Of a stretch of DNA of 26,173 nt, positions 8,347 through 24,178 are shown piece after piece. The notes below the pieces were generated by a model. That model made no database searches and was not told where the DNA came from. It was given only the letters and a program-made list of their open reading frames with translations. How positions within the stretch are numbered: position 1 is the stretch's first letter; each line of letters opens with the position of its first letter. This DNA comes from Promethearchaeota archaeon. Lineage in GTDB: Archaea > Asgardarchaeota > Lokiarchaeia > Sigyniarchaeales > SOKP01. Made by a program: the position numbers and the translations under genes. The stretch is taken from the NCBI GenBank assembly GCA_018238625.1, contig JABCSY010000055.1, positions 1 to 26,173 of the forward strand, given 5' to 3'.

Positions 8347-9819
8347 CTATTTTTTATCTTGTTTCGTAAGTCTTTTGGTAACTGGTGTACAACCTAACAA
8401 ATCCTTGAATTTTCGCATGAATTCCATATCAATTGGCTCTCGTGCATCCCCCCAACAAAGCTTTAATAGTTCTTTTGCCTTATCGGGAGCCTGTAAAATG
8501 ATATTCTCAGTTAATCTGGGGTCTTTATTGACATCAAATAGACTTCCTCCTTCCGTGTCCCACACATACCCATTATACCAAAAATCTCCATCGTAAACTG
8601 CTACAGAGCCACCCCAAGCTATGGAAATGTGATCGTAATATGTCAATCCATCATCTTGAACCAATTTCAATAGGTTCTTGCCGTCCATATTGTTCGCAGA
8701 AACGCCGCAGACTTCACAGATAGTGGTGGCGATGTCATGATGATAACAAAATTTGTCACAAGTTTTACCACTACCTTCCCCTTCTGGAAATCGGATCATA
8801 GCGACAAGATCAGCTACTTCACGTCCTAAAGGGTTGGCGGCTTTTGCTATAAGTCCGTGCTCTCCCAGCATGTGGCCGTGATCGGAAACTACCACGATAA
8901 TCGAATCATCCCAGATACCGATCCGTTTGATATAGTCTATGAAATAACCGAACCATGTGTCCACGAGCGACACTTCCGCGGCATACCTAGTCCTTAAATT
9001 TTTGAGTTCTTTTTCAGAAAGTATACTCGCAGGTCCATAGATAGAGTGTGATACTTTTCGGCATCCTTTTTCCCAATCAGGGTCTTTTTCGTATAGCCGA
9101 ATGTATTGAAGAGGTGGATTCCAAGGTTCGTGTGGATCGAACGATTCAACAGTTATAAATCCTTTCCCTTTTATTAGAGCATCATAATTCATATCCAACC
9201 ATTCACCAGCTGCGCGAAATACTTGGGCTGTAAAAGTATCAGTTTCGGAGCGCCACCAGCGTACATTTTGAAGGAATCGACGCATCATGTATTGTCCAAA
9301 TATCGTACCTGCCGATATCCCATCCTCTTTGGAAGTGAGGTATTCTTTAAGGACATCATCAGAGATTCGTGGTCCGGATAGATATGCGTCCTCTTCTTGC
9401 CCACGAATCCATTTCCATTGATCAAACCCACGATTAAAATTATAACCTGGCTTAAATTGATGATAAACATCGGAAAATAAAGCTGTAACATATTTTTTAC
9501 GATTAAATCGCTCTGCTAGAGTGTCTTGAGAATCTGAAATACAGCTCCAACCAGGAGCGCCAAGAGCATCGGCGATGATATCTCCCCGCGCAGATTTTGT
9601 CTTTCCAAGCTTATCATCCGTAAAAGGAAAAACACGTTTCCCAGTATAGATAGCTTTTCGTGCCGGGAGTGTCGGTAATGACTCCGGGTACATTCGTGTA
9701 AATTTCACGGATTCTTTGGCAAACTTGTCTAAATGTGGTGTTTTTATCCACGTATTGCCATAACATCCCACATGGTCTTGTCTTAAAGTGTCAAGCACAA
9801 TTAATATCGCATTTACCAT
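8347..9819 (-). CDS. Sulfatase-like alkaline-phosphatase-superfamily hydrolase with Thr at the nucleophile position
   Basis: N-terminal ILIVLDTLRQD, TPHLD, TLPARKAIYTG (aligns with C/S-x-P-x-R-x4-TG), FDPHEPW, Y-x-AEV-x2-VD and VVSDHG. Confidence 0.88.
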   Translation of the reverse strand: MVNAILIVLDTLRQDHVGCYGNTWIKTPHLDKFAKESVKFTRMYPESLPTLPARKAIYTGKRVFPFTDDKLGKTKSARGDIIADALGAPGWSCISDSQDTLAERFNRKKYVTALFSDVYHQFKPGYNFNRGFDQWKWIRGQEEDAYLSGPRISDDVLKEYLTSKEDGISAGTIFGQYMMRRFLQNVRWWRSETDTFTAQVFRAAGEWLDMNYDALIKGKGFITVESFDPHEPWNPPLQYIRLYEKDPDWEKGCRKVSHSIYGPASILSEKELKNLRTRYAAEVSLVDTWFGYFIDYIKRIGIWDDSIIVVVSDHGHMLGEHGLIAKAANPLGREVADLVAMIRFPEGEGSGKTCDKFCYHHDIATTICEVCGVSANNMDGKNLLKLVQDDGLTYYDHISIAWGGSVAVYDGDFWYNGYVWDTEGGSLFDVNKDPRLTENIILQAPDKAKELLKLCWGDAREPIDMEFMRKFKDLLGCTPVTKRLTKQDKK

Positions 9820-9867: not shown

Positions 9868-11097
9868 TTATAATGTTCTTGGAATTTTAATTTCGAGATC
9901 TGTAATTGGGTAGGATGCGCATGGATGGAAATAGTTAAATTTCTTATCTCCAGCTTTCCTCCAATCAGAAACAGGACTTATATACACATCACCTGAAATA
10001 AGAAGCGAGCGACAGAACCCACATTCGCCAGAGCGGCATTTTGATGGTGGATTTAAGTTTGCCCGTTCTAGAGCAACAAGGACGGATTCGGTTGCTTTTG
10101 CTGGTATTTCTTTAATCAAACTTCCAATGTGAGTCTTAATCTTAAATACCTTATCGGCTACATCTTGAGGGAAGTCTGGATTACTTAGAATCTCTTTAAT
10201 TTCACCAAAAGCCTCTCTACGAATTCGTTTAACGGGCAAGTTAAATTTTTTGAGCTCTTCTTCAACGAAATTATACATGATTTGTGGTCCACATATAAAA
10301 AAAGTACTTGAATTTGCATCACAGTATTTTTCAATTATCTCTTTAGTTATAAAACCCTTTTCACATCCTTCTAATGAAACAATATCGCTACTTAAAATAT
10401 GCACGACTTTAATTTTATTCGGGTACTTCTTTTCAAGCTCTTTAAATTCGTCGTAATAAATGATATCGTCTTCTTCGCTACTTCCATAAAGCAAAGTTAA
10501 TTTTGCATCTAATTTGTCCTCAACAATTTCTTTAGCGATGGAACGGAATGGCGTAATTCCTGATCCTCCCGCGAGACCAACTATTTGTTTTAAGTCCCTA
10601 AGAGGCTCGTAAAAAAAGAACCCTTCTGGTCCAGAACTTTCAATCTTAGTTCCTACTTTCCAGTTATCCCATATATATCCAGTTAAAAATCCAGGTTCTT
10701 CTTTTCTAATTGTGATTTCATAGAAACCTTTTAAAGCGTCCGAAGGAGAAGAAGCTATTGAATAAGGTCTTGTGATAGCAACTCCATTCACTTGAACCTT
10801 CAAGCTTAAATATTGACCCGCTCTAAAATAGGCCAATTCTTTTGTGTTTGAATCGGGATCGGGTTTGAGCTTAAATGTTTTAGTGGATTTTGTTTCGTCT
10901 TTGATATCACTGATAACTAAGTATAGTCTTATGGGATGAAGTCGCACAGCAAGTTCATTCATTGGATCCTTTGTTATTGGCTCACTAGACGCCTTTTCGA
11001 ACATCTTTTTTCGTTTTGGGACTAATTTTGTAAACGCAAATAAATCTCTTGTGTTGCTTTTAATAATAATATCAAATTTCTTTTTCTCTTCGCTCAT
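9868..11097 (-). CDS. FNR-like FAD/NAD(P)H oxidoreductase with C-terminal [2Fe-2S] ferredoxin domain (PaaE/Hcr/KshB-type architecture)
   Basis: FRAGQY, RPYSIAS, GPEGFF, AGGSGITPF, FFICGP, EAFG, then CRSGECGFC...C-x-SYP. SD GGTGA, and an ATGA overlap with the upstream gene. Confidence 0.92.
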   Translation of the reverse strand: MSEEKKKFDIIIKSNTRDLFAFTKLVPKRKKMFEKASSEPITKDPMNELAVRLHPIRLYLVISDIKDETKSTKTFKLKPDPDSNTKELAYFRAGQYLSLKVQVNGVAITRPYSIASSPSDALKGFYEITIRKEEPGFLTGYIWDNWKVGTKIESSGPEGFFFYEPLRDLKQIVGLAGGSGITPFRSIAKEIVEDKLDAKLTLLYGSSEEDDIIYYDEFKELEKKYPNKIKVVHILSSDIVSLEGCEKGFITKEIIEKYCDANSSTFFICGPQIMYNFVEEELKKFNLPVKRIRREAFGEIKEILSNPDFPQDVADKVFKIKTHIGSLIKEIPAKATESVLVALERANLNPPSKCRSGECGFCRSLLISGDVYISPVSDWRKAGDKKFNYFHPCASYPITDLEIKIPRTL

Positions 11098-12659
11098 TTT
11101 AGCTCACCTTTTTTATGTAAGTCTTGTAAAGTTAGTAACGCAGCAGTCTCTCCATCCTTTAAAGCACTACTATATCCGTGACATCTTTTGCCAAAACCTC
11201 CACAAAATTCAAGACCATCAATATGTTTTTCGTCATTCATCGTCATCAAGCGTGGGACAAAAGAATCCCAAGAGTCGGGTTCGTATCCATATACTACTCC
11301 ATTATAACTTCTAGTAAATCTTGAAATGGTTTGAGGCGTAGCAACTTCAATTTCCTCAATATGTTCCTTTATTGGAGCACCAGTGGTTTTTTCCAAAGTG
11401 TTAATAAGGTCTTCCGCGATTTTATTTTTTAATGTAAAGTAATCTTCGGGTTTTACATCGTCCCATACTCCCGGTAGATAAGCAGTTGTAATTGAAATAA
11501 TACATGTACCTGGAGGTGAGCAGTCTGGGATTGCATTATTTAAACAAATTGTTGCTTGAACCCCAGGTGTTTCAAGCTTATTCAAAGATTCGTAAAGGAC
11601 ATCTGTATTCTTATTGTTATAAATAAAGTAACTATAATCTTTGAGTCCTAATTCATCGGCCGTTGCGTCTAAACCCAAATAAACAACAAATGTAGAAACT
11701 CCATGCCGTCTAGCATTTATTTCCTTATAAGCAATTTCTGGAACTTCTGATTTAGGATGTATTAATTTGTTATAAGTAAGCGTAGGTGAAGCGTTGCAAA
11801 CTACATGATTCGTTTTAATCTTATCTCCTTTAGAAGTTTCAACTCCAACAACTTTACCGCTTTCAACCAAAATCTTCTCTACTGTCGTGTTATATTCGAT
11901 TTTGCCTCCTAACTCTCTGATCCTTGTATCTAAAGCGGTAGTGTAATCGTGAGATCGAAATTTTGGAATATAAGCACCTTTCAAAATATAACCATAAACC
12001 ATTGAAGCGAAGATCGTAAAATTTACTCTATTTGTTGGAACTCCTAAATAAACCCAATACGCGTTAAGAATGCTCCTTGCTTTTTCTGGCATATTAAGGG
12101 CATTTTGAATATCCTCCACGGAATAAGCTGTAGTTTTAAGAAAATTTGAATGCTCCTTTAGTAAAACATTCTGATCGGGATTTCCTTTTGACTGACCTAT
12201 ATAGGCAGTTGCTCTATTAATGTCTTGTGCGAGGTCAAAAAATTTACTTACAGAATCTCTACTTCCCGGGACCTCTTTTTCCATAATATCAAGATAAGAA
12301 TCGACACCAAAAGGCATTACTACATTAATCTCTTCATCTGGGTCCGTTAAAATTAACCTATACGCCTCAGGAACTTCTACGAACTCTGAATCTAGTTTAT
12401 ATTTTTCTAATAGTCTTCTAGTACCTCCCTTATCTGATGAAGGCCCATAATCATAAAGTTCGTGAAGTGAAGTTTCAAACTCAAACCTACCCCTTACAAA
12501 ACTAGAGGCAAAACCCCCAGGTAAGTTATGTTGTTCTAAAAGCAGTATTTTAGCGCCTCTCATTGCTAATTCTGCCGTAGCTATTAAACCACCGTTACCC
12601 GCCCCAATAACTACTACATCATATGAATCCTCAATTCCTTGTTCTTTTATCTCACTCAT
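11094..12659 (-). CDS. Phytoene-desaturase/retinol-saturase-like (CrtI/RetSat family) FAD-dependent oxidoreductase
   Basis: DVVVIGAGNGGL, LLEQHNLPGG...RGRFEFE, S-x-FVVYLG, EVATPQT...GVVYG and GLEFCG. Confidence 0.88.
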   Translation of the reverse strand: MSEIKEQGIEDSYDVVVIGAGNGGLIATAELAMRGAKILLLEQHNLPGGFASSFVRGRFEFETSLHELYDYGPSSDKGGTRRLLEKYKLDSEFVEVPEAYRLILTDPDEEINVVMPFGVDSYLDIMEKEVPGSRDSVSKFFDLAQDINRATAYIGQSKGNPDQNVLLKEHSNFLKTTAYSVEDIQNALNMPEKARSILNAYWVYLGVPTNRVNFTIFASMVYGYILKGAYIPKFRSHDYTTALDTRIRELGGKIEYNTTVEKILVESGKVVGVETSKGDKIKTNHVVCNASPTLTYNKLIHPKSEVPEIAYKEINARRHGVSTFVVYLGLDATADELGLKDYSYFIYNNKNTDVLYESLNKLETPGVQATICLNNAIPDCSPPGTCIISITTAYLPGVWDDVKPEDYFTLKNKIAEDLINTLEKTTGAPIKEHIEEIEVATPQTISRFTRSYNGVVYGYEPDSWDSFVPRLMTMNDEKHIDGLEFCGGFGKRCHGYSSALKDGETAALLTLQDLHKKGELK

Positions 12660-12736: not shown

Positions 12737-14119
12737 TTATAATTCATTTAGAATTACCTTGAATACATAAACGGGAGATTCTATCAAATTTTCAGGAATA
12801 CTGATAACCAAATCTTCTTGATCCTGCTCCCATTTTAGTTGATTATCATAACCAAGCAACCTAATTTTTGAATTCTGAGGAATTTTTAATGCCAATATCT
12901 TTAAAGATTTTCCTTTTGGATTATTTAAGAGATGGATGTACAGTATTTCATTTTTATGCGTAAATCTAATCTCGAGATTATCCAAAGTGTTGCCCTCAGC
13001 TCTTTCCCAAGGACGAGTGCCATAAATTCCCTCTCCGTTAATCTCCAACCACTGACCCATCCCTATTAATACTTTCTTCTGAATTTCAGGTATTGTTCCA
13101 TCTGGCAAAGGTCCAACATTCAATAATAAATTACCATTTTTACTTACGATATCTACGAGCATCCTAATAATTTCATTGGATGCTAAGTAATCCTCTTCTT
13201 TTTCCATTTTATTAAATCCATAAGAATTTCCAATCCCGCGACTTGATTCCCATTTCTTTTTCTTAATGATGTTATAAGTCTCGTATTCAGGAGTAGTAAA
13301 ATCATAAAAAGGTGTCCTTTTTACTTTGATTAACTTACCGTCTTCATGGTACATTTTATCCCAACGATCATTAATTACACCTTCAGGAAATTTATTATAA
13401 TAGTATGCAAAAAGTTCGAAGAGATCAAAAAGTGGAGGTGCTCCTATATCACCCCATAATATTGAAGGTTCAAATTCATCAATTAATTCATACAAATGAT
13501 TTTTAACATATTCTGTATATTCTGGAGTTATAACTCCATTTATCATGAAGCTTAAACGATCTTTAATTGGATCGGGGTTGAAAGACCAATCGTAAGAACT
13601 TGAGTAATAAAAACCCATTTTCAATCCTTTACTTTTTACCGATTTTGTGAGTTCGCCCACTAAATTTCTACTAGCTATATAATTTTCTTTCATAGGGTTT
13701 GGGTACTTGCTTGGCCATAAGAGAAATCCATCATGATGCTTTGTTACAAGCACTACATATTTGGCACCTGCATTTTTGAAAATTCCAGCCCATTCCTGTG
13801 GGTCCCACTTTTCTAATTCTTCGTTGAAGATAGGTACGAAATCGTTGTAAGAACTATCTTCTCCATATTCTTTATGATGATATTTTTGTGTTGGGCTTTC
13901 AGAAATCCTTAATGTATTGAGATACCACTCAGCATATGGATTGTTCTTAAAGTGGTATTCTTCCCCCTCTTTTGATGATTCTATGATACTCAAGCCAGTA
14001 ACTGCAAATGCTGGTACGGAAAACAATCCCCAATGAATGAAAATACCAAACTTTGCGTCGTGAAACCAGTCAGGGACTTCGTGTTTTTTAATTGATGCTT
14101 TTGTGGGTTCAAATTTCAT
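12737..14119 (-). CDS. Alpha-L-fucosidase, glycoside hydrolase family 29
   Basis: PDWFHDAKFGIFIHWG, YAEWY, AGAKYVVLVTKHHDGF, LWGD (nucleophile), INDRW, TPEY and VDIVSKNGNLLLNVGP. No obvious signal peptide. Confidence 0.95.
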   Translation of the reverse strand: MKFEPTKASIKKHEVPDWFHDAKFGIFIHWGLFSVPAFAVTGLSIIESSKEGEEYHFKNNPYAEWYLNTLRISESPTQKYHHKEYGEDSSYNDFVPIFNEELEKWDPQEWAGIFKNAGAKYVVLVTKHHDGFLLWPSKYPNPMKENYIASRNLVGELTKSVKSKGLKMGFYYSSSYDWSFNPDPIKDRLSFMINGVITPEYTEYVKNHLYELIDEFEPSILWGDIGAPPLFDLFELFAYYYNKFPEGVINDRWDKMYHEDGKLIKVKRTPFYDFTTPEYETYNIIKKKKWESSRGIGNSYGFNKMEKEEDYLASNEIIRMLVDIVSKNGNLLLNVGPLPDGTIPEIQKKVLIGMGQWLEINGEGIYGTRPWERAEGNTLDNLEIRFTHKNEILYIHLLNNPKGKSLKILALKIPQNSKIRLLGYDNQLKWEQDQEDLVISIPENLIESPVYVFKVILNEL

Positions 14120-14227: not shown

Positions 14228-17200
14228 TTGGATAAAATAAGACATTCTAAAGAGATAATTAACATGAATGAATTAGAAATTGATAAAAAGGTTGAGAATT
14301 TTAAAGAGCAGTTAAATTTACTTGCTATGATATTCGATACACGTAGAAAAATGCGTAAAGAGATATATAACGAAAAAACAGGATTTGTCTTTAATGCTAA
14401 ATATCAGTTTACTACAAAAGATGATAAAGTTAATGTTATCGTAATATTTAAAGATGGAAAAATGACAGTCAGCGAGGGAAAAATTGAAGATCCTAACATA
14501 ACAATTTATTATAAAGATAAAGAGACTTTGGCTAATCTCTATAATAAAAGCGCCGAGGAATCTCTTGATTATCTTTTGACAAATGAAATGGGATATATAG
14601 GAAACATGTCTTACCTTACTAAATTCTCTTATCTTACTTCACTTGTTACGGCACCTAAAAAAAGAGACTACAAAGGTCCAGAAAATCGATTAATATATCC
14701 TATCGAAGATATTGATAAGGGAAAAAAGAGCAGAAAACTAAGGAACGAGAGCTTAAATCGTAAGATAGATAACGTTCAAGTTTTAAAAGATCCGTATTTG
14801 TCAAAATATACCCTAGATGATTTTCCACGCTTAAAATATTTGAAGAATAGACGATTTGCCTTAAAGCCAGTGGTATGTATTGAAAGAGCAAAACATTTGA
14901 CAGAGTATCATAGAGAGAATGGATTTGAAGTAGACAATTCAGGAAATCCGATAGATCCCGAATTGCGCCAGGCAAGAGCAGTAAATCATATAATGTCAAA
15001 TAAAAAACCAATAATTCATGATAAACATCTTATAGCAGGTTCAACTACTTCAAAAGAAGTAGGTATCCCCTTGTATCCAGAACTTATCGCGACTGGTATA
15101 TGGCCCGAATTAAAAACTATTGGTGAACGTGAGCTTAATCCTAACGATATTTCAGATAAAGATGCAGATATATTAAGTTTGGAAGTGTTTCCCTATTGGA
15201 TGGAGCGAAACGTAAGAGAATACTGTAGAGCAAAAAACAACGACCCATTCTCGCAACATTTAGAAGAAGGGTGGGTTTTTTATTTCATGATGAAAAATAA
15301 CGCCATTAGCCATACCGTTCCTGGCTTTCCAATGGTGCTCAATGAAGGATTAGAAAGCGTGAAGAATAAAGCCAATAAAATGGAAATAAAAGCGGATACA
15401 ACTGAAAAGCAAAATTTTTATAAGGCAATTCAAATTGCAATCGATGGGGTTCTAGCGTATTCTAAAAATTTAAGTGAAGAAGCCTTCATATCTGCTAATA
15501 ATTTAGAACAAAACGATCCAGATCAGGCTATTCGCATAGAGGAATTGAAGGAGCTCTCTAGAATATGTGCTAAAGTCCCCGCCAAACCTGCAGAAACAAT
15601 ATACGAAGCAATTCAATCAATTTGGACTAGTTTTGTTTGTCTTCACTGCGAAAATGCAAATTCAGCTTTATCAATTGGTCGGCTTGATCAAATGTTACAA
15701 CCTTTCTTTTTAAAAGAAATCGAAAAAGCGGCCAATGATGAAGAAAGGAATCAAATTGTAAAAAAAGCTATAGAACTTGTAGGATCGTTATTTTTGAGGA
15801 TAAACGATCACGATCCGGTAATGCCGAATGTAGGGTGGAAATTATTCGGGGGGAGCTCCTCTGACGACACAGTAACTATTGGAGGCGTAGATAGAGACGG
15901 TAAAAATGCCGTAAACGATATGAGTTTTATTATATTAAAAACAAATGAAATGCTGGGTTTTCAGGATCCTAATATGAATGCCCGGTATTATTCTGGTATT
16001 AATTCAAAGGAGTATCTAAGACGATTGTGTGAAGTAAACATCAATATGGGCGCTTCGCCTAGTATTCATAACGATAGAACTATGATTGAAGCGTTGGTCC
16101 ATGAAGAATTCTCAATTGAAGACGCAAGAGATTGGGCAGCTACAGGTTGTGTAGAGCCCACAATTGTAGGTAAACATTATGGTCATACGAATTGTATGCT
16201 TTTAAATTTAGTCGCACCGTTAGAAATTATGTTAAATAATGGTTTCATACCTTTAACTGGAGAAAAAGTGGGTCCTGAAACGGGCGATGTTCGAACTTCT
16301 TTCCCGACATTTGAGGCCTTTCTTAATGCGTATAAAACTCAACTCAAATATTTAGCAGAAAAATCAATTGAAATTAATAATTATTTAGGGGAAGCCCATA
16401 AGTATATCCATCCTACCCCATTATTATCTGGATTTTTTGAGGGTCCTTTAGAACAAGGCAAAGACCTTATTCAAGGAGGAGCTATTTATAATACGTCGGG
16501 AGTTGCCTTAGTGGCATTGACAGATGTGGTTGATAGCTTATTAGTTGTAAGAGATCTCATCTACAAGAAAAAAGAATTGAACTTTGCTACATTGATGGAT
16601 GCCATTGAAAATAACTTTGAAAATGGTTATGAATCAATTCTACACAATATAGAACAAGTTCCAAAATTTGGGTCTGGTGAAAATGGTACTGTCGAACTTG
16701 CTCAAGATTTAATTGACTTTTGCTACGATGTGTATCATTCTGCTGACAATTATAGAGGGGGTAAATACTTAGTGGGATATTGGTCTATTAGTTACCACGC
16801 GGGATTTGGAATGCTTACTGGTGCTTTGCCCTCAGGTAGAAAGAAAGGTAAATCATTAACACCTGGATTAACTCCTGCCCCGGGTACAACGGACATCCTT
16901 TTACCAAGCATTCAAAGTGTTGCGAGCTTAGATTATTTGAAAATGGCAAACAACGCATCTTATAACGTCAAATTAATACCTCATTCTGGAGATACACATG
17001 AAGAAACATTAGATCTCTTTACAAGTTATGTACAAAGCTTTTTTGATTTGAATGGGATGCAGTGGCAATTTAACGTCGTGTCCACTGATACATTAAGAGA
17101 TGCGATGGCTAATCCAATTGATTATCGTTGGCTTTTAGTTAGAGTTTCAGGGTATAACGCATATTTCACGAAATTAAACAAGAACATGCAATTAGAATTT

Positions 17201-17230
17201 ATTGAGCGGCACGAATATAAATCAAGATAA
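14228..17230 (+). CDS. Glycyl radical enzyme (eliminase-type Cys loop) with N-terminal SCP2-like domain
   Basis: Cys loop TGCVEP (Cys641), glycyl motif VRVSGYN (Gly975), SIGRLDQ, TIGG...VNDMS, GALPSGR. Residues ~25-140 resemble SCP2. The likely start is ATG 14264 rather than TTG 14228. Confidence 0.93.
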   Translation: MDKIRHSKEIINMNELEIDKKVENFKEQLNLLAMIFDTRRKMRKEIYNEKTGFVFNAKYQFTTKDDKVNVIVIFKDGKMTVSEGKIEDPNITIYYKDKETLANLYNKSAEESLDYLLTNEMGYIGNMSYLTKFSYLTSLVTAPKKRDYKGPENRLIYPIEDIDKGKKSRKLRNESLNRKIDNVQVLKDPYLSKYTLDDFPRLKYLKNRRFALKPVVCIERAKHLTEYHRENGFEVDNSGNPIDPELRQARAVNHIMSNKKPIIHDKHLIAGSTTSKEVGIPLYPELIATGIWPELKTIGERELNPNDISDKDADILSLEVFPYWMERNVREYCRAKNNDPFSQHLEEGWVFYFMMKNNAISHTVPGFPMVLNEGLESVKNKANKMEIKADTTEKQNFYKAIQIAIDGVLAYSKNLSEEAFISANNLEQNDPDQAIRIEELKELSRICAKVPAKPAETIYEAIQSIWTSFVCLHCENANSALSIGRLDQMLQPFFLKEIEKAANDEERNQIVKKAIELVGSLFLRINDHDPVMPNVGWKLFGGSSSDDTVTIGGVDRDGKNAVNDMSFIILKTNEMLGFQDPNMNARYYSGINSKEYLRRLCEVNINMGASPSIHNDRTMIEALVHEEFSIEDARDWAATGCVEPTIVGKHYGHTNCMLLNLVAPLEIMLNNGFIPLTGEKVGPETGDVRTSFPTFEAFLNAYKTQLKYLAEKSIEINNYLGEAHKYIHPTPLLSGFFEGPLEQGKDLIQGGAIYNTSGVALVALTDVVDSLLVVRDLIYKKKELNFATLMDAIENNFENGYESILHNIEQVPKFGSGENGTVELAQDLIDFCYDVYHSADNYRGGKYLVGYWSISYHAGFGMLTGALPSGRKKGKSLTPGLTPAPGTTDILLPSIQSVASLDYLKMANNASYNVKLIPHSGDTHEETLDLFTSYVQSFFDLNGMQWQFNVVSTDTLRDAMANPIDYRWLLVRVSGYNAYFTKLNKNMQLEFIERHEYKSR

Positions 17231-17245
17231 ACCTAATGAAAGATA

Positions 17246-17282
17246 TTTTTTTATTCATTTTATCTAACTTTTTAATTTTTTT
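17246..17282 (+). terminator. T-rich terminator-like tract between the GRE and its activase
   Basis: T7 (17246-17252), T4, T5 and T7 (17276-17282) within the 88-bp spacer. Confidence 0.4.
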
Positions 17283-17318
17283 ATCAATACTTCTATTGAC
17301 GATACTATAATCTCAACA

Positions 17319-18218
17319 ATGACAGATAAAACTCTATTAGTAGATATTAAAAGGAACGCTTTAGATGACGGTCCGGGAATAAGAACGTTACTATTTTTTA
17401 AAGGATGCCCACTTTCTTGTGTATGGTGCCAAAATCCTGAAGCTAAATCGCCATTTAAAGAAATTTCTTTTAATAAAGATAGTTGTAGTGAATGTGGAAC
17501 ATGTTTAAAAGTTTGTAATCAAGATGCAATAGATTTTTCAAACAAATATCGAATAGATCGCTCTTTATGTGATCTCTGTGGTAATTGCATTGAAGTATGC
17601 CCAAATTACGCCTTAGAATTTGTAGGACAAGAATATAGCATAAAAGAATTACTTGAAATTATATTAAAAGATAGAATTTTTTATAAAAATTCAGGTGGAG
17701 GTGTTACTTTTTCTGGTGGAGAACCACTTTATCATATAGATTACATAAAGGAATTAGTAAAAGAACTCAAAAAAGAAGATATTCACGTATGCATTGAGAC
17801 ATGTGGATATTATACTCGAGATAAATTTTATGAAATTATTTTACCATATATCGACCTTATTTATTTTGATTTGAAAATTTACAATCCAAAATTACATGCT
17901 AGATATTGTAAAGTTTCAAACGAGAGAATATTAGAAAATTTTGAAGATATCCTTAAAAACAAATCAATAGAATTATTACCAAGGATTCCTCTTATTCCTA
18001 ATATAACTGATACTGAAGAAAATTTGAATAACTTAGCTAATTATTTGAAATCCTTAAAAGTAAAAAAAATAGAATTATTGCCTTATAATCCACTCTGGCT
18101 CTCTAAACCAGAAAGAATAGGAATTAAACCATCCTATAACTATACTGAATGGTTAACTAAAAAGAAAAAAAAAGAGATTAAAGAGATATTTTCAGATTTT
18201 AAATTTAAAGATTTCTAA
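17319..18218 (+). CDS. Glycyl-radical enzyme activating enzyme (radical SAM) with 2x[4Fe-4S] ferredoxin insertion
   Basis: DGPGIRT..FFKGCPLSCVWCQNPE, CSECGTC...C and CDLCGNC...CP, GGGVTFSGGEP, IETCG, FDLK, RIPLIP, ELLPYN. Confidence 0.95.
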   Translation: MTDKTLLVDIKRNALDDGPGIRTLLFFKGCPLSCVWCQNPEAKSPFKEISFNKDSCSECGTCLKVCNQDAIDFSNKYRIDRSLCDLCGNCIEVCPNYALEFVGQEYSIKELLEIILKDRIFYKNSGGGVTFSGGEPLYHIDYIKELVKELKKEDIHVCIETCGYYTRDKFYEIILPYIDLIYFDLKIYNPKLHARYCKVSNERILENFEDILKNKSIELLPRIPLIPNITDTEENLNNLANYLKSLKVKKIELLPYNPLWLSKPERIGIKPSYNYTEWLTKKKKKEIKEIFSDFKFKDF

Positions 18219-19999
18219 ATCGGTTTACCTTGGGCATCCCACTCTCTAATGTGGTAATATTTTTCCAATAATCCTTCTAATGGGGGAATATTTCGTTTAG
18301 ATCCACCTTTTTCAAGGGGGGTATAAAATCTCTTCCCAAAATTATCGTCTGCTTTAGTGATCCCACATTTAACATTAAAAATTCTTTTCATTCTAATGAT
18401 CTTTTGTCCTGCTTTCATGAAATCGTCGACTGTAAATGCCCTTCCAGTAATTCCATTAAGACCATTTATCCAAGGTGTGAGTTTGTGGATGAACCAAAAT
18501 CCAAATATACATCCCCCACACGCAGAAAACGCCTCACTGCCATCCTGAATCTTTATTACAGCTTCAGCAACATCATCCCCCGTTCCAAAACGATCTACTT
18601 GTTCGGTTAAACCGATTTCTTCTTTTTGATTCATATAGGAAGACAAATGCATCGGTTCATAACAATGATATGCACCTCGAGGTGTTGTTGCGTAATCTAA
18701 TGCTGTTAGATTATTTGCTCGTGGTTCATGAGCAGGAACTTCGAGTCCTTTTCCATGCATAGAGAGTTCTTCTGGCAAACCCTTTACTTCACAAAAAGAT
18801 CTCACTCCTTCAGCTAAATCATCACCAATTCCTTCTCGATAAGCAATTTTAGTGAAGAGTTTTTCTATCGGTCCAATAGCACCCCAAATATTTTCTTCAG
18901 TGAACCCAAATTCATCTAAATTAACATCAATTAGCTTTCTTTCAATAGATTCTAGGAAACATCCTATTACTGCCCCAAGACTAATTGAGTCCAGTCCAAG
19001 ATCATTAACTATTAAATTCCATTTGATTAACGCCTCTAAGTCGTTAACCAATAAATTAGAACCTAACATTCCTAGGGTTTCATATTCTGGGCGAGTTACC
19101 CATTCTCCCTCATATTCCACGAATCCCCTGCAAGCCGTTGGACAATTAAAACAGCCATGCATTTTGACCTCTCCTCTTGCGTTTAACGCCTTAGCACCAG
19201 TTTTTTTCATCCCAATCCATCTTCCCATTGTATAATTCTTAATAATAATATCCCCTACACTAGCCATGGAATCTATGTGGACTGGCGTACCTGAATCTGC
19301 AAATACCATTCCTAATGCAGATGTCTTTAATAATTCTCTAAGTTCTTTAGCTGCATCATTTACTTTATCTTTATCTTGAACGGTAACTTTACCCGTGCCA
19401 CGAACTGCAATAGCTTTTAAGTTCTTGCTTCCCATTACAGCTCCCATTCCGCAACGTCCAGCTGCGTGATGCTTATCATTGATTATACACGCGTATTTGA
19501 CTAAATTTTCTCCAGCAGGTCCAATAGTAGCTACTTTTATTTTATCGTTTCCAACCAGCTCTTTTATTTTTTCATCAGTTTCTTGAGTCCCTTTCCCCCA
19601 CAATTCAGAAGCATCCTTTATTTCTGCTACTCCATCATTTATCCATAGATAAACTGGACTTTGACTTTTGCCCTTAATGATTACTAGATCAAAACCTGCA
19701 GATTTAAGCTCCTTACCAAAAAAACCTCCTGAAGATGCTTCCCCGAGAATTTTAGTTAGTGGTGATTTTGCTGTAATAAAGTATCTACCACAGAAAGGAA
19801 TAGCTGTGCCGCAAAATGGTCCAACTGAGAAGATCAAAGGATTATTCCCATCAAACGGATCAATTTCGGGATCTACTTCTCGCGTGAAGATCGCAGTTGC
19901 TAAACCCATTCCTCCGATTAAAGACACTTCATCTTCATCAGTGTAATCTTCATAGTCAATGTTTTTCGTTTCTAAATCTATTCTTAAAATTTTTGCGAT
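18215..19999 (-). CDS. aor: Tungsten-dependent aldehyde:ferredoxin oxidoreductase family protein
   Basis: KSPLT, AGFD, IGPAGE, AAGRCGMGAVMGSKNLKAI, CFNCPTAC, PEYET, DLGLD and a fourth Cys in GGCIF. The frame extends 24 codons upstream of the track's GTG 19927 to ATC-GCA-AAA-ATT-TTA-AGA-ATA-GAT-TTA (xAKILRIDL), the usual AOR N-terminus. Confidence 0.93.
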   Translation of the reverse strand: MAKILRIDLETKNIDYEDYTDEDEVSLIGGMGLATAIFTREVDPEIDPFDGNNPLIFSVGPFCGTAIPFCGRYFITAKSPLTKILGEASSGGFFGKELKSAGFDLVIIKGKSQSPVYLWINDGVAEIKDASELWGKGTQETDEKIKELVGNDKIKVATIGPAGENLVKYACIINDKHHAAGRCGMGAVMGSKNLKAIAVRGTGKVTVQDKDKVNDAAKELRELLKTSALGMVFADSGTPVHIDSMASVGDIIIKNYTMGRWIGMKKTGAKALNARGEVKMHGCFNCPTACRGFVEYEGEWVTRPEYETLGMLGSNLLVNDLEALIKWNLIVNDLGLDSISLGAVIGCFLESIERKLIDVNLDEFGFTEENIWGAIGPIEKLFTKIAYREGIGDDLAEGVRSFCEVKGLPEELSMHGKGLEVPAHEPRANNLTALDYATTPRGAYHCYEPMHLSSYMNQKEEIGLTEQVDRFGTGDDVAEAVIKIQDGSEAFSACGGCIFGFWFIHKLTPWINGLNGITGRAFTVDDFMKAGQKIIRMKRIFNVKCGITKADDNFGKRFYTPLEKGGSKRNIPPLEGLLEKYYHIREWDAQGKPI

Positions 20000-20025
20000 T
20001 TTTTAACACCAATTTTTGCTATAAT

Positions 20026-20045
20026 TGTAAATAATTCTGTTTACA
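20026..20045. promoter_or_regulatory. TGTAAA-N8-TTTACA inverted repeat between the AOR TATA-like box and start
   Basis: Perfect 6-bp arms, directly downstream (on -) of TATAAATA at ~20049-20056. Confidence 0.35.
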
Positions 20046-21634: not shown

Positions 21635-22501
21635 CTAATTCTTTGCTGGTGATGCGTAACAATAAGCACAATTGTGTTTGCAACGAAATATTCCAGTATA
21701 TCCACCTATATCTTTAGATTTAAAACACCCGCAGCCTTTTCTCTGTCCTGTATCTTTTAATTTTGAAATCTTCTCCCCTATAATTTGCTCGATTTTATTA
21801 GCGTCAATACAATGAGCTTGTTCAATGCCATTTATTTCGAGTAAATCAGGTTGGCAACAAGCTTTTATTTGTATATCATTCTTATTGCAAACCTCTAATA
21901 ACTTGTTAAGAATCTCTTTCTTTTTATTAAAAGGGGGATCAAGGGGGATAAAATCTCTCTTTTTCATTCGATTACTCACTTTATTGTAGATTGTCGCGAA
22001 GGAAAATATCATTTCTTTTAGCCCAAGAACAGAAACTTTTTCTATTATATATTCAAATTTGTCTAGGTTACTTCTTATTTTATTATCATCCTTCTTTTTG
22101 TAAATGATTATAGGGTCAAATCTAAAACTTACAGCGTTGGAACCAAACTCATCGATCAACCATTCTAGTTGAGTAAATCTCTCTTCTAAGGAGATATCCA
22201 GATTTTGCTCTAATTCAGAAGGTGAGTTAATCGTGAATTGAAAGTAATGTCCCTTATACGATTTAAAGAGTTGTTTATTTTTTTCATAAGTTTTTATCCA
22301 TGCTTTAAAGTTTTTACTCCACCACACCCAACATCTTACATCTTCGGATTTCAACGAAACACGAGACACTTGTTTACGATTAAATGGATTAACCACATCT
22401 ACATAACCGATCTGGATTTTATCGATTACCCAATCCATTAAAAAAGCGGGAATATCTGTTCTGCGAGAGCAAGAAATTACAGGAGATTTTACAATTTTCA
22501 T
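21635..22501 (-). CDS. DUF1848 family protein (C-terminal radical-SAM-like CxxxCxxC)
   Basis: IS-x-SRRTDIPAF, NPFN, WSKN, QFTI, RFDPI, CID, DTGQR..CGC..S-x-DIG and CKHNCAYCYA. Confidence 0.9.
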   Translation of the reverse strand: MKIVKSPVISCSRRTDIPAFLMDWVIDKIQIGYVDVVNPFNRKQVSRVSLKSEDVRCWVWWSKNFKAWIKTYEKNKQLFKSYKGHYFQFTINSPSELEQNLDISLEERFTQLEWLIDEFGSNAVSFRFDPIIIYKKKDDNKIRSNLDKFEYIIEKVSVLGLKEMIFSFATIYNKVSNRMKKRDFIPLDPPFNKKKEILNKLLEVCNKNDIQIKACCQPDLLEINGIEQAHCIDANKIEQIIGEKISKLKDTGQRKGCGCFKSKDIGGYTGIFRCKHNCAYCYASPAKN

Positions 22502-22546: not shown

Positions 22547-24178
22547 CTATTTTCCCGATAGATATAAAATCATTGCTGAAACGAATAAATCCTTTTTCTC
22601 GTTCATTAGCAATTGCTCATCTATGTTTTGCAAACCATCAAGTGAAACATTGAACTTTCTTAGGAGTAAATTGTCAAAGATCATTAAATGAGGATTTGAA
22701 AATGCCGCGCCGCTTTTTGTTTCTTGTCGTAGAAATTTTCTAAATTTAGGTTCTAACCAGATTTTAAAAGGACCAGGGCTATGTTCTGCTTTATGTTTTA
22801 TGTTGAATTTACTTTGAAGATTAATAATAACATCAAAGACAGTTTCGCATATTAATTTCAAATTCTTTTCGTTTTCTTTGTAGAAATACGGAATTGGGAC
22901 TGGTAAGCGCATATGTAACAGTAATCCTTGACCCTTCCGAAAGTTAATATGGCCATATCCAAAAATTACTTTATGGAACCCATGCTTTACAAATAGTTCA
23001 TTGATAGTCTCAATGATGTCTGGCAAGTTTTTTGGTTCGCTTAAGACATCTTCAAACCCTGGAAATGCGATATAATCGGTAGATTTGTCTTCAGTTTGAA
23101 CTATTAAAGCAAAAGATGAACGTTCTTGAAGATAATCTTGAAATTCTTCTTCGTTTAATATTTTCCAAGAACAATCAGCCTGTTGTTTCATTACATCAAT
23201 AAATTTATCAACATTATTCTTAGATCCCTCAATAAGGGCTGCCCATTTCACAACTTTATTCTTTTTACTTTCGCTCCCAAGTTCGCTAAACTTTCCAGGA
23301 AGGCTTTCATCTGAAATTACAAATTCGCTAACTAAGGGAAAAATCTTAGAATCTAAAATTGATTGCAAACCCTTAAACGCTAAATTCAAATTATATCCAT
23401 ACATAATAGCTTGTTTCAAATTAGTTTCTGGACGATATAATTTAATTGTTGCGCTTAGTATCACACCAAAATAACCATTTCCACCAATTATATTCATGAA
23501 AAGAGCATGATTATTATCAATCTCAACGATCGTTCCGTTTGGCCTCATAACACGAATTCTCTCGACCCAATTTTCCACCGAACCCAATTTTCCTGAAGTT
23601 ATCCCGCTTGCATTCGAAGCAATTAACCCCCCTACTCTTACAGGTAACTTTAAAGCGCTTGCTGGTTGAACGGGGAAGATTAAACTATTATTACTTTTAA
23701 GTAGTGTGTATTTAATTAGATCTGATACCATAACATTTTGATTTACCCGAACAATATCATTTTTAAAATCGTATTGCATTGCTTCTTTATAGGATTGAAA
23801 ATCAACCATATCAACAATAATACCAAAATTCCCATAACTTCCAGAAAGGCCCGTTTTTCCTCCAGCAAAAGTAATGGGAATCTTAAATTTCTGAGAGTTT
23901 TTTACTATAACTCGTAATTGTCTCTCAACCTTAGGTCTAAATAGAATGTAAGGTCTTAAGTGGAGGTGTGACGTATCTCGAATAACACTTGCTTGTATTG
24001 GATCTCCAACAAGCATCACATAACCGGATCGAAAGAGTTTGTAATATTTATTACCCTTTGGTATTTTTGGAGCCTTTATAAAAGTTAATTTAAGAAAACC
24101 TTCCCTTTCCATGTGGTCTAAAAATGGCTCCCAAGGTAGTTTATCTTGAAGGTTTTTGATCAAAGTATTTTTTTCCAT
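22547..24178 (-). CDS. VAO/PCMH-fold FAD-linked oxidoreductase, GlcD/D-2-hydroxyacid-dehydrogenase-like, divergent
   Basis: FAGGKTGLSG, FPVQPAS, VGGLIASNASG, IIGGNGYFGVI; C-terminal GYGH...LLH...AEH. Confidence 0.8.
   Translation of the reverse strand: MEKNTLIKNLQDKLPWEPFLDHMEREGFLKLTFIKAPKIPKGNKYYKLFRSGYVMLVGDPIQASVIRDTSHLHLRPYILFRPKVERQLRVIVKNSQKFKIPITFAGGKTGLSGSYGNFGIIVDMVDFQSYKEAMQYDFKNDIVRVNQNVMVSDLIKYTLLKSNNSLIFPVQPASALKLPVRVGGLIASNASGITSGKLGSVENWVERIRVMRPNGTIVEIDNNHALFMNIIGGNGYFGVILSATIKLYRPETNLKQAIMYGYNLNLAFKGLQSILDSKIFPLVSEFVISDESLPGKFSELGSESKKNKVVKWAALIEGSKNNVDKFIDVMKQQADCSWKILNEEEFQDYLQERSSFALIVQTEDKSTDYIAFPGFEDVLSEPKNLPDIIETINELFVKHGFHKVIFGYGHINFRKGQGLLLHMRLPVPIPYFYKENEKNLKLICETVFDVIINLQSKFNIKHKAEHSPGPFKIWLEPKFRKFLRQETKSGAAFSNPHLMIFDNLLLRKFNVSLDGLQNIDEQLLMNEKKDLFVSAMILYLSGK

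Follow-up and report, generated by a model that had tools for sequence, protein, structure and literature searches.

An Asgard archaeal glycyl radical enzyme with a predicted SCP2-fold domain: a candidate eliminase for amphipathic substrates

Background

Why would a glycyl radical enzyme (GRE) carry an SCP2-type domain at its N-terminus? The substrates of characterised GRE eliminases are all small and polar, and little is understood of what becomes of ether- or diol-headed lipids in anoxic sediments. The question is raised by a gene in a window of 26,173 nt (the whole stretch of DNA analysed, contig JABCSY010000055.1 of a Promethearchaeota archaeon), for which an earlier note had proposed an uncharacterised GRE class receiving a long hydrophobic substrate. 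If this is true, a large clade with a fused and docked lipid-carrier domain would extend GRE chemistry to amphipathic or lipid substrates and would point to an anaerobic way of degrading such ether- or diol-headed lipids. Such genes have also been used to argue for alkane and aromatic degradation via fumarate addition in Asgard archaea (PMC8163825, available in part).

Gene model and N-terminal domain

The SCP2-GRE gene lies on the plus strand as an ORF at 14228..17230, encoding 1000 aa when read from the TTG at 14228. Since the relatives retrieved by homologue search are mostly 982-991 aa long and cover 94% of query residues 1-200, the ATG at 14264 (Met13 of the 1000-aa ORF), which gives a protein of 988 aa, is likely the true start and the one common to homologues. 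Cys641, Glu643, Gly975, His362, Asp546 and Asn655 are cited below in 1000-aa numbering, and His350 and Asp534 in 988-aa numbering.

An SCP2 pattern had been read earlier at about nt 14300-14647, which falls within the domain as delimited here (14264..14668, plus strand; residues 1-135 of the 988-aa form) from a fold match and weak sequence signals. The fold bore this out, the sequence profiles only in part. Pfam SCP2 (PF02036) remained sub-threshold on the window protein (E=0.013, 16.3 bits against a gathering cutoff of 21.3); among 139 sequence relatives of the domain it was the sole recurring Pfam family, detected in 14 at E≤1e-3 and above the gathering score in 10. The top PDB profile match was an SCP2 chain (4uei, E=0.052), and the nearest Atlas clusters carry the name SCP2, at 0.91. 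An AlphaFold2 model of residues 1-188 was confident over residues 1-135 (pLDDT ~90 or above), with the topology H3-26 H28-34 E45-51 E57-63 E66-71 E79-83 H86-94 H97-105 E109-113 H115-135 (988-aa form). Foldseek searches of this model against the PDB returned 29 matches at E≤1e-3, and every match listed was SCP2-fold, including UbiJ-SCP2, AF1534, SdsA1/Pisa1, SCP-2L and MFE-2 (target-normalised TM 0.6-0.7, E 1e-5 to 1e-3, identity 12-20%). As modelled, the structural match is well beyond chance, and the first ~135 residues form a divergent SCP2-fold domain.

SdsA1/Pisa1, UbiJ-SCP2, the SCP2 domain of MFE-2 and AF1534 thus share the predicted fold of the window domain. In SdsA1 and MFE-2, which act on alkyl or acyl chains, the SCP2 domain is fused to an enzyme as in the window protein, but the fused catalytic partner is never a GRE among the SCP2-domain enzymes compared. 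Some of the SCP2-fold domains in the Foldseek list come from GNAT/Eis proteins, in which their role is mainly structural, a point against substrate delivery by the domain in the GRE. No solved GRE chain in the PDB matched the profile of the N-terminal domain, and the terms SCP, sterol and Asgard do not occur in the available portion of a 2026 review of the GRE superfamily (PMC13450708), in keeping with the earlier remark that characterised GREs lack such a domain. The fusion of a GRE with an SCP2 domain is an architecture undescribed for this superfamily.

Linker and predicted docking on the core

The domain is followed by a linker (14669..14818, plus strand; residues 136-185) that has no regular secondary structure and was modelled with low confidence when the domain was taken alone; in the full-length GRE model (pTM 0.87), 10-residue block means reached 92-94 over residues 161-190. 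Complex prediction with the SCP2 domain and the catalytic core as partners scored 0.85, against 0.00 for the best of three controls; 58 of 80 solved complexes attain the mark used for this score, as do 2 of 110 mismatched pairs. Between runs, 82% or more of the contacts agreed, and the partner pLDDT was 82 or higher. The SCP2 domain is therefore predicted to dock onto the core, at the conserved N-terminal helices (residues 277-338).

This surface may lie near helices that form the dimer interface in other GREs, so that the domain could serve assembly instead of substrate delivery. It could then be a structural or regulatory module that, for example, helps oligomers assemble or gates either the glycyl-radical domain or the substrate channel, a role played by the small subunits in BSS and MASS. 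The enzyme itself would in that case be an eliminase or dehydratase with a small polar substrate, for instance a diol or a sugar derivative set free by a neighbour such as an alpha-L-fucosidase. We consider this unlikely, though well worth weighing. Docking on conserved core helices, as modelled, would fit it, and channel gating by accessory subunits is known for BSS and MASS (PMC13450708, in part). The nearest structural relatives of the domain, however, all bind lipid or alkyl chains, and known small-substrate eliminases function without such a domain.

Catalytic core and active site

The catalytic core (14819..17227, plus strand) comprises a PFL-like barrel (Pfam PF02901, residues 203-861, E 2.8e-152) and a glycyl radical domain (PF01228, residues 878-981, E 1.4e-22), and the protein matched 36 PDB GRE sequences at E≤1e-3. 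The motifs GCVEP, containing Cys641 (codon 16148-16150, plus strand), and RVSGYNAYF, containing Gly975 (codon 17150-17152, plus strand), were invariant across 35 aligned family members, and the latter agrees with the glycyl radical domain fingerprint RVxG[FWY] (PMC13450708, in part). An intact core with these two residues and an adjacent ferredoxin-type activase had been claimed for this locus. Judged from its sequence, the window GRE is indeed an intact glycyl radical enzyme, with barrel, glycyl radical domain, Cys loop Cys and activase all present.

The Cys loop is of the CXE type (TGCVEP; C-V-E) in the window GRE and in five aligned bacterial paralogs. According to the accessible part of the review, CXE is kept by all 1,2-eliminases and GRE isomerases, and in glycerol dehydratase (GD) the base is Glu435 and the acid His164 (PMC13450708). 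The His of AISHT in the window GRE aligns with GD His164; GCVE and this position (His350) were invariant in the 35 aligned family members, and Glu replaces the His in one paralog (L067). CXE and the His164 equivalent support an eliminase/isomerase-type chemistry for SCP2-GREs, as the earlier note had suggested. Other GD positions differ in the window GRE: Ser282 is Ala, Asp447 is Asn (Asn655) and Tyr339 is Asp (Asp546, i.e. Asp534 of the 988-aa form). Because the Asn and Asp positions are polar and invariant, a small polar substrate would also fit, which favours the structural-module explanation.

Most database names present such proteins as pyruvate formate-lyase (formate C-acetyltransferase), with source names such as 'formate acetyltransferase' and 'pyruvate formate lyase family protein' and a Pfam PFL-like match on their side. 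We regard this function as scarcely credible: TIGR01255 gave 125 bits against a cutoff of 994, E. coli PFL structures were matched at 92 bits, and the Cys loop has a single Cys (G-C-V-E), two being confined to PFL and TdcE (PMC13450708, in part).

Comparison with solved glycyl radical enzymes

The best solved-structure match was Archaeoglobus fulgidus PFL2/PflD (2f3o; 368 bits, aligned to query residues 239-994), likewise an archaeal, single-Cys CXE GRE. It differs in being 776 aa long without an N-terminal SCP2 domain, the window alignment beginning at query residue 239, and in keeping Asp at the position of GD Asp447, where the SCP2-GRE family has Asn. The 2026 review describes it as being of unknown function (PMC13450708, in part), and it has also been proposed as an Ass (PMC8163825, in part).

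The C-O eliminases GD (1r8w), propanediol dehydratase (PD, 5i2a) and HypD (6vxc) followed at 338-356 bits and have the barrel, CXE and the His164 equivalent in common with the window GRE; they differ in their small and polar substrates and in having no SCP2 domain. Products of the GD/PD/HypD type (aldehydes or imines) would fit the AFOR encoded next to the window GRE. The E. coli GRE isomerases YbiW and PflD (8id7, 8yjo; 272-301 bits) share CXE, but have sugar phosphate substrates and no SCP2 domain. Both break a ring C-O bond, by H-abstraction at the carbinol carbon followed by ether-type C-O cleavage (PMC13450708, in part), which provides a precedent for beta-hydroxy-ether cleavage.

The X-succinate synthases (MasD, 9o8u; BSS TutD, 4pkc) belong to the same superfamily, have a ferredoxin-type activase, act on hydrophobic substrates and co-occur with SCP2-GREs in one genome. 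Their Cys loop, however, is C-M-S, without Glu or His, and they need small channel-gating subunits. They bear on the published interpretation: Zhang et al. 2021 labelled homologues in Asgard archaea (Hermodarchaeota, Thorarchaeota) Ass/Bss on the strength of their identity to AssA (29-33%), their one Cys and an activase of the ferredoxin type (PMC8163825, in part). The SCP2-GRE would then be an archaeal Ass/Bss adding a hydrocarbon to fumarate, with the SCP2 domain delivering the alkane, which we hold to be very improbable. The label includes Hermodarchaeota, whose proteins P0025 and P0033 fall in the SCP2-GRE clade, and alkane carriage by an SCP2 domain is possible in principle. Most GREs, on the other hand, have just one Cys and an activase of this type (PMC13450708, in part). 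Bit scores of the window GRE were 190 for MasD and 169 for TutD, compared with 338-368 for 2f3o, PD, HypD and GD. Among ORFs of at least 80 aa around the GRE, no gene for a beta or gamma subunit was apparent, and the gap between GRE and activase is only 88 nt. The family also occurs in Desulfatibacillum, which are alkane/alkene degraders, in agreement with the label. One genome (G001) nevertheless encodes MasD and SCP2-GREs as separate genes. Its MasD orthologues (1476 bits to 9o8u) have the Cys loop C-M-S (QACMSPC) in place of C-V-E and lack the His164-equivalent His; since true MasD in a genome bearing SCP2-GREs has C-M-S, the published label is unlikely. For Asgard physiology, this Cys-loop comparison argues against a fumarate-addition reading of the SCP2-GRE clade.

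Family placement and distribution

Membership of eliminase equivalogs was tested for GD, PD, CutC, HypD, HpsG/HpfG and IslA. All NCBIfam equivalogs of characterised GREs scored 125-415 bits on the window GRE against cutoffs of 994-1150, and none was reached: HypD gave 415.5 bits (cutoff 1100), CutC 398 (1050) and HpsG 360 (1000). The subfamily model TIGR01774 gave 525 bits against a cutoff of 678. In a tree with MasD-like rows as outgroup, the 43 GREs with the N-terminal domain were monophyletic (SH-aLRT 100), apart from MasD-like and every other non-SCP2 GRE in the tree. These scores and this clade uphold the proposal of an uncharacterised GRE class, and SCP2-GREs are, by sequence criteria, an uncharacterised GRE subfamily.

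The clade is well defined and comprises at least 119 protein clusters at 90% identity. Its distribution is patchy, with SCP2-GREs in 33 of the 301 Asgard genomes sampled, and paralogs (2-4 copies per genome) occur in three bacterial genomes, including Desulfatibacillum and a Thermodesulfobacteriota. The Asgard genes were probably acquired from bacteria by lateral transfer.

Gene neighbourhoods

The activase gene (17319..18218, plus strand) begins 88 nt downstream of the GRE gene and codes for a radical SAM enzyme of the GRE-activating kind, in which two 4Fe-4S motifs resemble those of ferredoxins; its product exceeded the TIGR02494 cutoff (297.3 bits against 174.35) and has two Fer4 motifs, which agrees with the ferredoxin-type activase first noted. 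Of the 33 loci that extend 1.2 kb or more beyond the GRE on its downstream side, 28 have an activase no further than 500 nt away on that side. A tungsten-type aldehyde:ferredoxin oxidoreductase (AFOR; 18215..20011, minus strand), convergent with the activase, accompanies the GRE-activase pair as a conserved partner. Of the 19 loci flanked by 6 kb or more on each side, which are related so that the counts are not independent, 18 have the activase and 14 the AFOR. What two otherwise different neighbourhoods were seen to have in common is GRE, activase and AFOR, the AFOR occurring there in both orientations; AFOR was not found beside the GRE in Frey/Jord-type loci or in three bacterial orthologue loci.

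Enoyl-CoA hydratase adjoins the GRE in three loci (L030, L032, L040), and a patatin lies upstream of it in another (L042). Genes beside bacterial SCP2-GRE paralogs code for a cholesterol-oxidase-like GMC enzyme (452 bits), SDR, HpnA/OleD/SdmB-like reductase, carboxylesterase, alpha/beta-hydrolase, phospholipase A1 and, in 3 of 6 loci, TetR; these lipid-type neighbours mostly adjoin paralogs at 40-49% identity, not the orthologue. Taken together, the neighbours (AFOR, enoyl-CoA hydratase, cholesterol-oxidase-like and 3beta-HSD-like enzymes, lipases, TetR) fit the conversion of a lipid-like substrate to a carbonyl product. That the domain was kept through paralog diversification amid contexts rich in lipid enzymes speaks against a purely structural or regulatory role. 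A small polar substrate would instead be in line with an alpha-L-fucosidase gene 109 nt upstream of the window GRE on the opposite strand, also adjoining the GRE in two other loci (L001, L023), and with two Ldh_2 genes and a sulfatase nearby, but just 2 of the 19 full-flank loci have a fucosidase.

Proposed function

We favour, at slightly better than even, a CXE-type eliminase/isomerase-like core with a fused and docked lipid-carrier-type domain, acting on an amphipathic substrate and giving a carbonyl product. From family membership, the adjacent radical-SAM activase would place the radical on Gly975, from where it would move to Cys641. The SCP2 domain may hold the hydrophobic tail of the substrate and position the hydroxylated head at the buried active site. 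The conserved residues suggest that the thiyl radical would take H from the carbinol carbon, that Glu643 would deprotonate the hydroxyl, and that His362 would aid the exit of a vicinal O-linked (or N-linked) leaving group, yielding an aldehyde or ketone. In Asgard archaea, conserved adjacency suggests that the AFOR would turn the aldehyde to the acid with ferredoxin as acceptor. An amphipathic or lipid substrate is what we infer from known roles of SCP2 domains and from gene neighbourhoods; the most likely class would be lipids whose head is a vicinal diol or a beta-hydroxy-ether (monoalkyl- or monoacyl-glycerol, long-chain 1,2-diol). An alkylglycerol ether, sphingoid base, long-chain diol or sterol/hopanoid side chain had been put forward as candidates in the earlier note.

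A bolder version, rather improbable in our estimate, would make SCP2-GREs the first lipid-acting GREs: the SCP2 domain would extract an ether or diol lipid, the CXE core would perform O2-independent beta-hydroxy-ether cleavage or dehydration, and Asgard archaea and sulfate reducers would gain a way of breaking down or remodelling ether lipids in sediments without oxygen. The substrate may then be, for example, a monoalkylglycerol ether, as from sulfate reducers, or an archaeal ether-lipid breakdown product. In the literature consulted, the one enzyme named as cleaving alkylglycerols is AGMO (PMC7911779, in part). AGMO is an oxygen-dependent monooxygenase.

Other features of the window

Upstream of the GRE on the opposite strand, a CrtI/carotenoid-isomerase-like FAD enzyme (11094..12659, minus strand) is paired with a PaaE/BenC-type reductase with FAD, NAD and 2Fe-2S domains (9868..11097, minus strand), each being present in 9 of the 19 loci; the CrtI-like enzyme is possibly an accessory, in type-A loci only. 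The AFOR ORF as called spans 18215..19927 and the homologous frame continues to ~20002, one extra base being found in an A-run beside the start codon of the homologues.

Gene structure and family assignment

A 1,000-codon ORF starting with TTG (14228..17230, forward strand) was followed, after a gap of 88 nt, by an ORF of 299 codons (17319..18218, forward strand). In the 1000-aa product of the former, Pfam assigned residues 203-861 to PFL-like (E 2.8e-152) and residues 878-981 to Gly_radical (E 1.4e-22), i.e. a glycyl radical enzyme (GRE). The latter encoded a radical-SAM protein with two Fer4 motifs (Pfam) and, with 297.3 bits, exceeded the cutoff (174.35) of the NCBIfam model TIGR02494, ‘glycyl-radical enzyme activating protein’. 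The intact GRE core and adjacent ferredoxin-type activase read in an earlier note from the sequence alone were thus recovered, and the Cys641 and Gly975 that it had named (1000-aa numbering) lay within GCVEP and RVSGYNAYF, both invariant in a family alignment of 35 sequences. Because relatives were mostly 982-991 aa long and covered 94 % of query residues 1-200, the true start is likely the ATG at 14264 (Met13), giving 988 aa; other residue numbers below refer to this form unless stated.

Every NCBIfam model of a characterised GRE scored under its cutoff (in brackets): TIGR01774 was highest with 525 bits (678), followed by HypD with 415 (1100), CutC with 398 (1050), E. coli PflD-type with 375 (1109), sulfopropanediol dehydratases with 360 and 342 (1000) and PFL with 125 (994). 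Judged by these scores, no characterised GRE family claims the protein, in agreement with its placement outside the characterised GREs in the earlier note. The ranking of solved structures was headed by A. fulgidus PFL2 (368 bits), propanediol dehydratase (356), HpyG (8id1; 346) and HypD (343), then glycerol dehydratase (GD; 338) and CutC (about 327), and, lower, MasD (190), BSS (169) and PFL (92). That the enzyme is a PFL, for all its PFL-like Pfam domain, is extremely improbable given the PFL scores in both rankings.

Fold of the N-terminal domain

Alignments of solved and curated GREs to the window GRE began only at about residues 186-200. On the first 200 residues, Pfam SCP2 was sub-threshold (E=0.013; 16.3 bits vs a gathering score of 21.3), and NCBIfam gave no match for residues 1-200. 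An exhaustive HMMER search with residues 1-188 retrieved 140 representatives at E<=1e-3 (22 at 1e-10 and 7 at 1e-30), many of them stand-alone proteins of about 150 aa matching residues ~17-126. SCP2 was the sole recurring Pfam family on the domain part of the 139 new proteins scanned, being found in 14 of them at E<=1e-3 (10 above the gathering score); 19 of the 139 were GRE fragments or full GREs. A 110-sequence profile of the domain, compared with the PDB, matched best the SCP2 chain 4uei (E=0.052) and matched no GRE chain, and the closest named Atlas clusters were ‘SCP2 domain-containing protein’ (0.91). The case from sequence stayed weak, and a fold search was needed.

In the AlphaFold2 model of the domain, block-averaged pLDDT was roughly 90 or higher across residues 1-135, and the topology was H-H-E-E-E-E-H-H-E-H. 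Searched against the PDB with Foldseek, it gave 29 matches at E<=1e-3, all SCP2-fold among the matches listed, with target-normalised TM-scores of 0.6-0.7. They included UbiJ-SCP2 (1.2e-5), A. fulgidus AF1534, SCP-2L, MFE-2 SCP2 and rabbit SCP2; SCP2-like domains of the alkylsulfatases SdsA1, Pisa1 and SdsAP were also matched. The SCP2 N-terminus proposed in the earlier note thus stayed sub-threshold as a Pfam assignment but held as a fold assignment: it is the modelled structure that argues decisively for an SCP2 fold in the window enzyme (hereafter SCP2-GRE).

As the HMMER matches P0221 (766 aa) and P0230 (517 aa) illustrate, the SCP2-like domain has other partners too: it was found fused to pentapeptide-repeat proteins, and in P0230 it formed the C-terminal end (residues 424-506) of a protein with DUF6765 and a PFL-like fragment.

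Predicted docking of the domain on the core

The full-length model had a mean pLDDT of 82.5 and a pTM of 0.87, with N-domain blocks at 84-91 and 10-residue block means of 92-94 at residues 161-190. When core (186-988) and domain (1-136) were submitted to complex prediction, the median score was 0.85, whereas the best of three controls reached 0.00; in calibration, 58 of 80 solved complexes attained this mark, but just 2 of 110 mismatched pairs did. Contact agreement between runs was at least 82 % and partner pLDDT at least 82. The domain is thus predicted to dock on the GRE core; since both belong to one polypeptide, the prediction shows a defined arrangement rather than an association event.

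To the predicted interface the domain contributes residues 96-130, with its C-terminal SCP2 helix and conserved G113-N114 motif, as well as residues 32-43. The core contributes residues 277-285 and 305-338, rich in family-invariant positions (W280, E282, F309, P310, W312, R315, R318 and E319), plus 522-526, 664-667 and 851. Residues 522-526 directly precede the FGGSSSDD loop, whose counterpart in the GD alignment is the segment containing the active-site residue Tyr339.

Catalytic residues

The Cys loop of the window GRE read C-V-E, and the His of its AISHT motif aligned with GD His164. Elsewhere in the alignment, GD Asp447 is replaced by an Asn and Tyr339 by an Asp, both invariant in the family alignment, and Ser282 by Ala. 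According to a 2026 GRE review (PMC13450708), CXE is kept by all 1,2-eliminases and GRE isomerases, its Glu being bonded to the substrate hydroxyl; in GD, the C1-OH is deprotonated by Glu435 and the leaving C2-OH protonated by His164, and in YbiW and PflD a ring C-O bond is cleaved following H-abstraction at C2. By these rules, the C-V-E loop and the His164 equivalent equip the window enzyme with the acid and base of an eliminase or isomerase that cleaves C-O bonds.

The label alkyl/benzylsuccinate synthase (Ass/Bss) was given to homologues from Hermod- and Thorarchaeota by Zhang et al. 2021 (PMC8163825), who relied on 29-33 % identity to AssA, 33-38 % to A. fulgidus PflD, the presence of one Cys and an activase rich in Cys. 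The SCP2-GRE clade includes Hermodarchaeota proteins (P0025 and P0033), which may or may not be among the five of that paper. A Desulfatibacillum-type genome (G001) offers a direct comparison, as it holds true MasD orthologues (1476 bits to PDB 9o8u), encoded at an Ass-type locus where two GRE and two activase genes occur together with AAA/VWA genes. These orthologues read Q-A-C-M-S-P at the Cys loop and lack the His, whereas T-G-C-V-E-P is found in the window GRE and in all five of the aligned bacterial paralogs. For this reason the published label is not supported by the residues of the SCP2-GRE clade, and we consider an Ass/Bss identity very unlikely.

In this genome L070 (G001:C88:17000-36000), with MasD-like GREs of 838 and 832 aa in tandem, a pair of activases, and PrpD-like and AAA/VWA genes, is a duplicated alkylsuccinate synthase locus.

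Distribution and phylogeny

A word-indexed search with residues 1-200 returned at least 119 clusters among 731 candidates, almost all of them GREs some 987 aa long, whose source names included Loki-, Thor-, Odin-, Hermod-, Frey- and Promethearchaeota, as well as Anaerolineales, Desulfatibacillum and Desulfomonilia. SCP2 was absent from the precomputed Pfam domains of all 119. The genomic loci recovered numbered 44 (41 archaeal and 3 bacterial titles). Of 301 genomes sampled from the window's phylum, 33 had the domain (f1 26/68, f2 2/7, f21 4/6; own genus 15/27).

Elsewhere in the window's genome (4.29 Mb, 97.9 % complete, 7.6 % contamination), six GRE-like matches showed 29-36 % identity; they did not reach residues before 186 and were all without the N-terminal domain (C118:8272-10593, C164:16694-19030, C121:18683-20887, C18:16-2052, C83:3418-5376 and C39:17989-18411), an unusually rich GRE repertoire for one Asgard genome. 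One orthologue each (61-65 % identity) was present in the bacterial genomes of L044 (Desulfatibacillum), L042 (Thermodesulfobacteriota) and L040. Besides many ordinary GREs, the same three genomes carried additional N-domain paralogs of full length with 40-49 % identity (two in G001, three in G002 and one in G003). Five Asgard genomes (G138, G189, G195, G249 and G267) carried a second or alternative N-domain GRE with 35-41 % identity in the domain; paralog diversification is therefore not limited to bacteria.

A tree of 52 rows was inferred with IQ-TREE (quick search, LG+G4) and rooted on MasD-like sequences; the L055 row was excluded, the longest ORFs at the paralogs of L055 and L064 being antisense artefacts. 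The 43 N-domain GREs formed a single clade (SH-aLRT 100). Inside a grade of Desulfatibacillum, Desulfomonilia and other sequences, the Asgard rows fell in an 18-row clade (support 99), in which P0005, P0049 and P0055 are labelled Asgard by assumption and P0073 and P0080 bear no taxon name. In this tree, which contains several long branches, the nested position suggests transfer from bacteria to Asgard archaea.

Gene neighbourhood

ORFs of the 44 loci and the window were clustered; the loci are mutually related, so that the counts below are not independent. Two Asgard contexts were distinguished. Type A comprised two Ldh_2 genes, a CDF transporter, a PaaE/BenC-type reductase, a CrtI/carotenoid-isomerase-like flavoprotein, the GRE, the activase and a tungsten-type aldehyde:ferredoxin oxidoreductase (AFOR; 18215..20011, reverse strand, in the window). 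Type B comprised FtsZ, AlaRS, GRE, activase, AFOR, metallophosphoesterase, NUDIX and DeoC; its 991-aa cluster 11, first taken as a second GRE, is the alanyl-tRNA synthetase. GRE, activase and AFOR were seen in both, AFOR in varying orientation.

Nineteen loci have flanks of 6 kb or more on each side; within that distance, 18 of them had the activase, 14 AFOR, 9 the CrtI-like/FNR-like pair, 2 a fucosidase and 1 an enoyl-CoA hydratase (ECH). In 28 of the 33 loci whose downstream flank measured 1.2 kb or more, an activase lay no farther than 500 nt downstream of the GRE. Neither the Frey/Jord-type loci nor the three bacterial orthologue loci showed an AFOR. A GH29 alpha-L-fucosidase (12737-14119, reverse strand) lies 109 nt upstream of the window GRE on the opposite strand, and one also adjoins the GRE in L001 and L023; a fucose-to-propanediol reading is nevertheless unlikely, because the gene occurred in only 2 of the 19 full-flank loci.

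ECH adjoined the GRE in L030, L032 and bacterial L040; in L042 the gene directly upstream encodes a patatin-like phospholipase. The bacterial paralog loci contained TetR regulators (3 of 6), a GMC enzyme with 452 bits on a cholesterol-oxidase model (cutoff 850), SDRs, a HpnA/OleD/SdmB-like 3beta-HSD-type reductase, an SRPBCC-epimerase fusion and hydrolases (carboxylesterase, alpha/beta-hydrolase and phospholipase A1). Taken together, these neighbours are circumstantial, but are what one would expect if the substrates were hydrophobic alcohols or lipids and the products carbonyl compounds. Apart from ECH, those in bacterial L040 and L044 and Asgard L032 and L033 were mostly housekeeping genes. 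The SCP2 domain might, alternatively, be a structural or regulatory module on a small-substrate eliminase, a reading we regard as less likely than the one proposed below.

The clearest sterol/hopanoid-type context of the subfamily was an apparent operon (L066:6234-12910) of TetR, a HpnA/OleD/SdmB-like reductase, an SCP2-GRE paralog (43 % identical) and a cholesterol-oxidase-like GMC enzyme.

Proposed function

We lean, with modest confidence, towards a joint reading in which the fused, docked SCP2 domain would bind the hydrophobic part of an amphipathic substrate, the CXE-type core would carry out radical 1,2-elimination or ether-type C-O cleavage at its hydroxylated head group, and the carbonyl product would pass, in Asgard archaea, to AFOR. 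The analysis shows the architecture, the fold, the predicted docking, the catalytic motifs, the distinctness of the clade and its conserved neighbours, and from these lipid binding, the reaction and a coupling to AFOR are inferred. What probability the readings weighed here leave over goes to some other explanation.

The superfamily and type of chemistry are known; the domain architecture is new and the substrate class probably so. In the non-subscription literature searched, no GRE fused to SCP2 or a sterol carrier protein was described, and among the papers listed on ether lipids none mentioned GREs; GRE sequence-similarity networks with an N-terminal domain yielded nothing relevant. The terms SCP, sterol and Asgard are absent from PMC13450708.

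Other features of the locus

At the AFOR start (19920-20040, reverse strand), one extra base was present in an A-run just after the TTG-GTG start of the closest homologues, which are 95-96 % identical (L002 and L031). It brings a TAA into the homologous frame before 20002, so that the ORF was called from GTG 19927, 28 codons shorter; either an assembly error in the homopolymer or a genuine frameshift may account for the base.

Metatranscriptome contigs X2 and X4 (one study), from relatives, matched 14231-14532, 15293-16242 and 15836-16189, and AFOR at 19353-19910, with 95-99 % identity; they were not used as evidence, as DNA carry-over is possible and the uncovered parts are uninformative. The window also contains a sulfatase-family gene (8347-9819, reverse strand) and two tandem Ldh_2 genes (4413-5516 and 5691-6824, forward strand), a pair conserved across type-A loci whose best match was L-sulfolactate dehydrogenase (258-272 bits, cutoff 500). 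Downstream of the GRE locus, a DUF1848 gene (cluster 7; 21635-22501, reverse strand) and a GlcD-like FAD_binding_4 gene (cluster 10; 22547-24178, reverse strand) reappear in 7-9 related loci.
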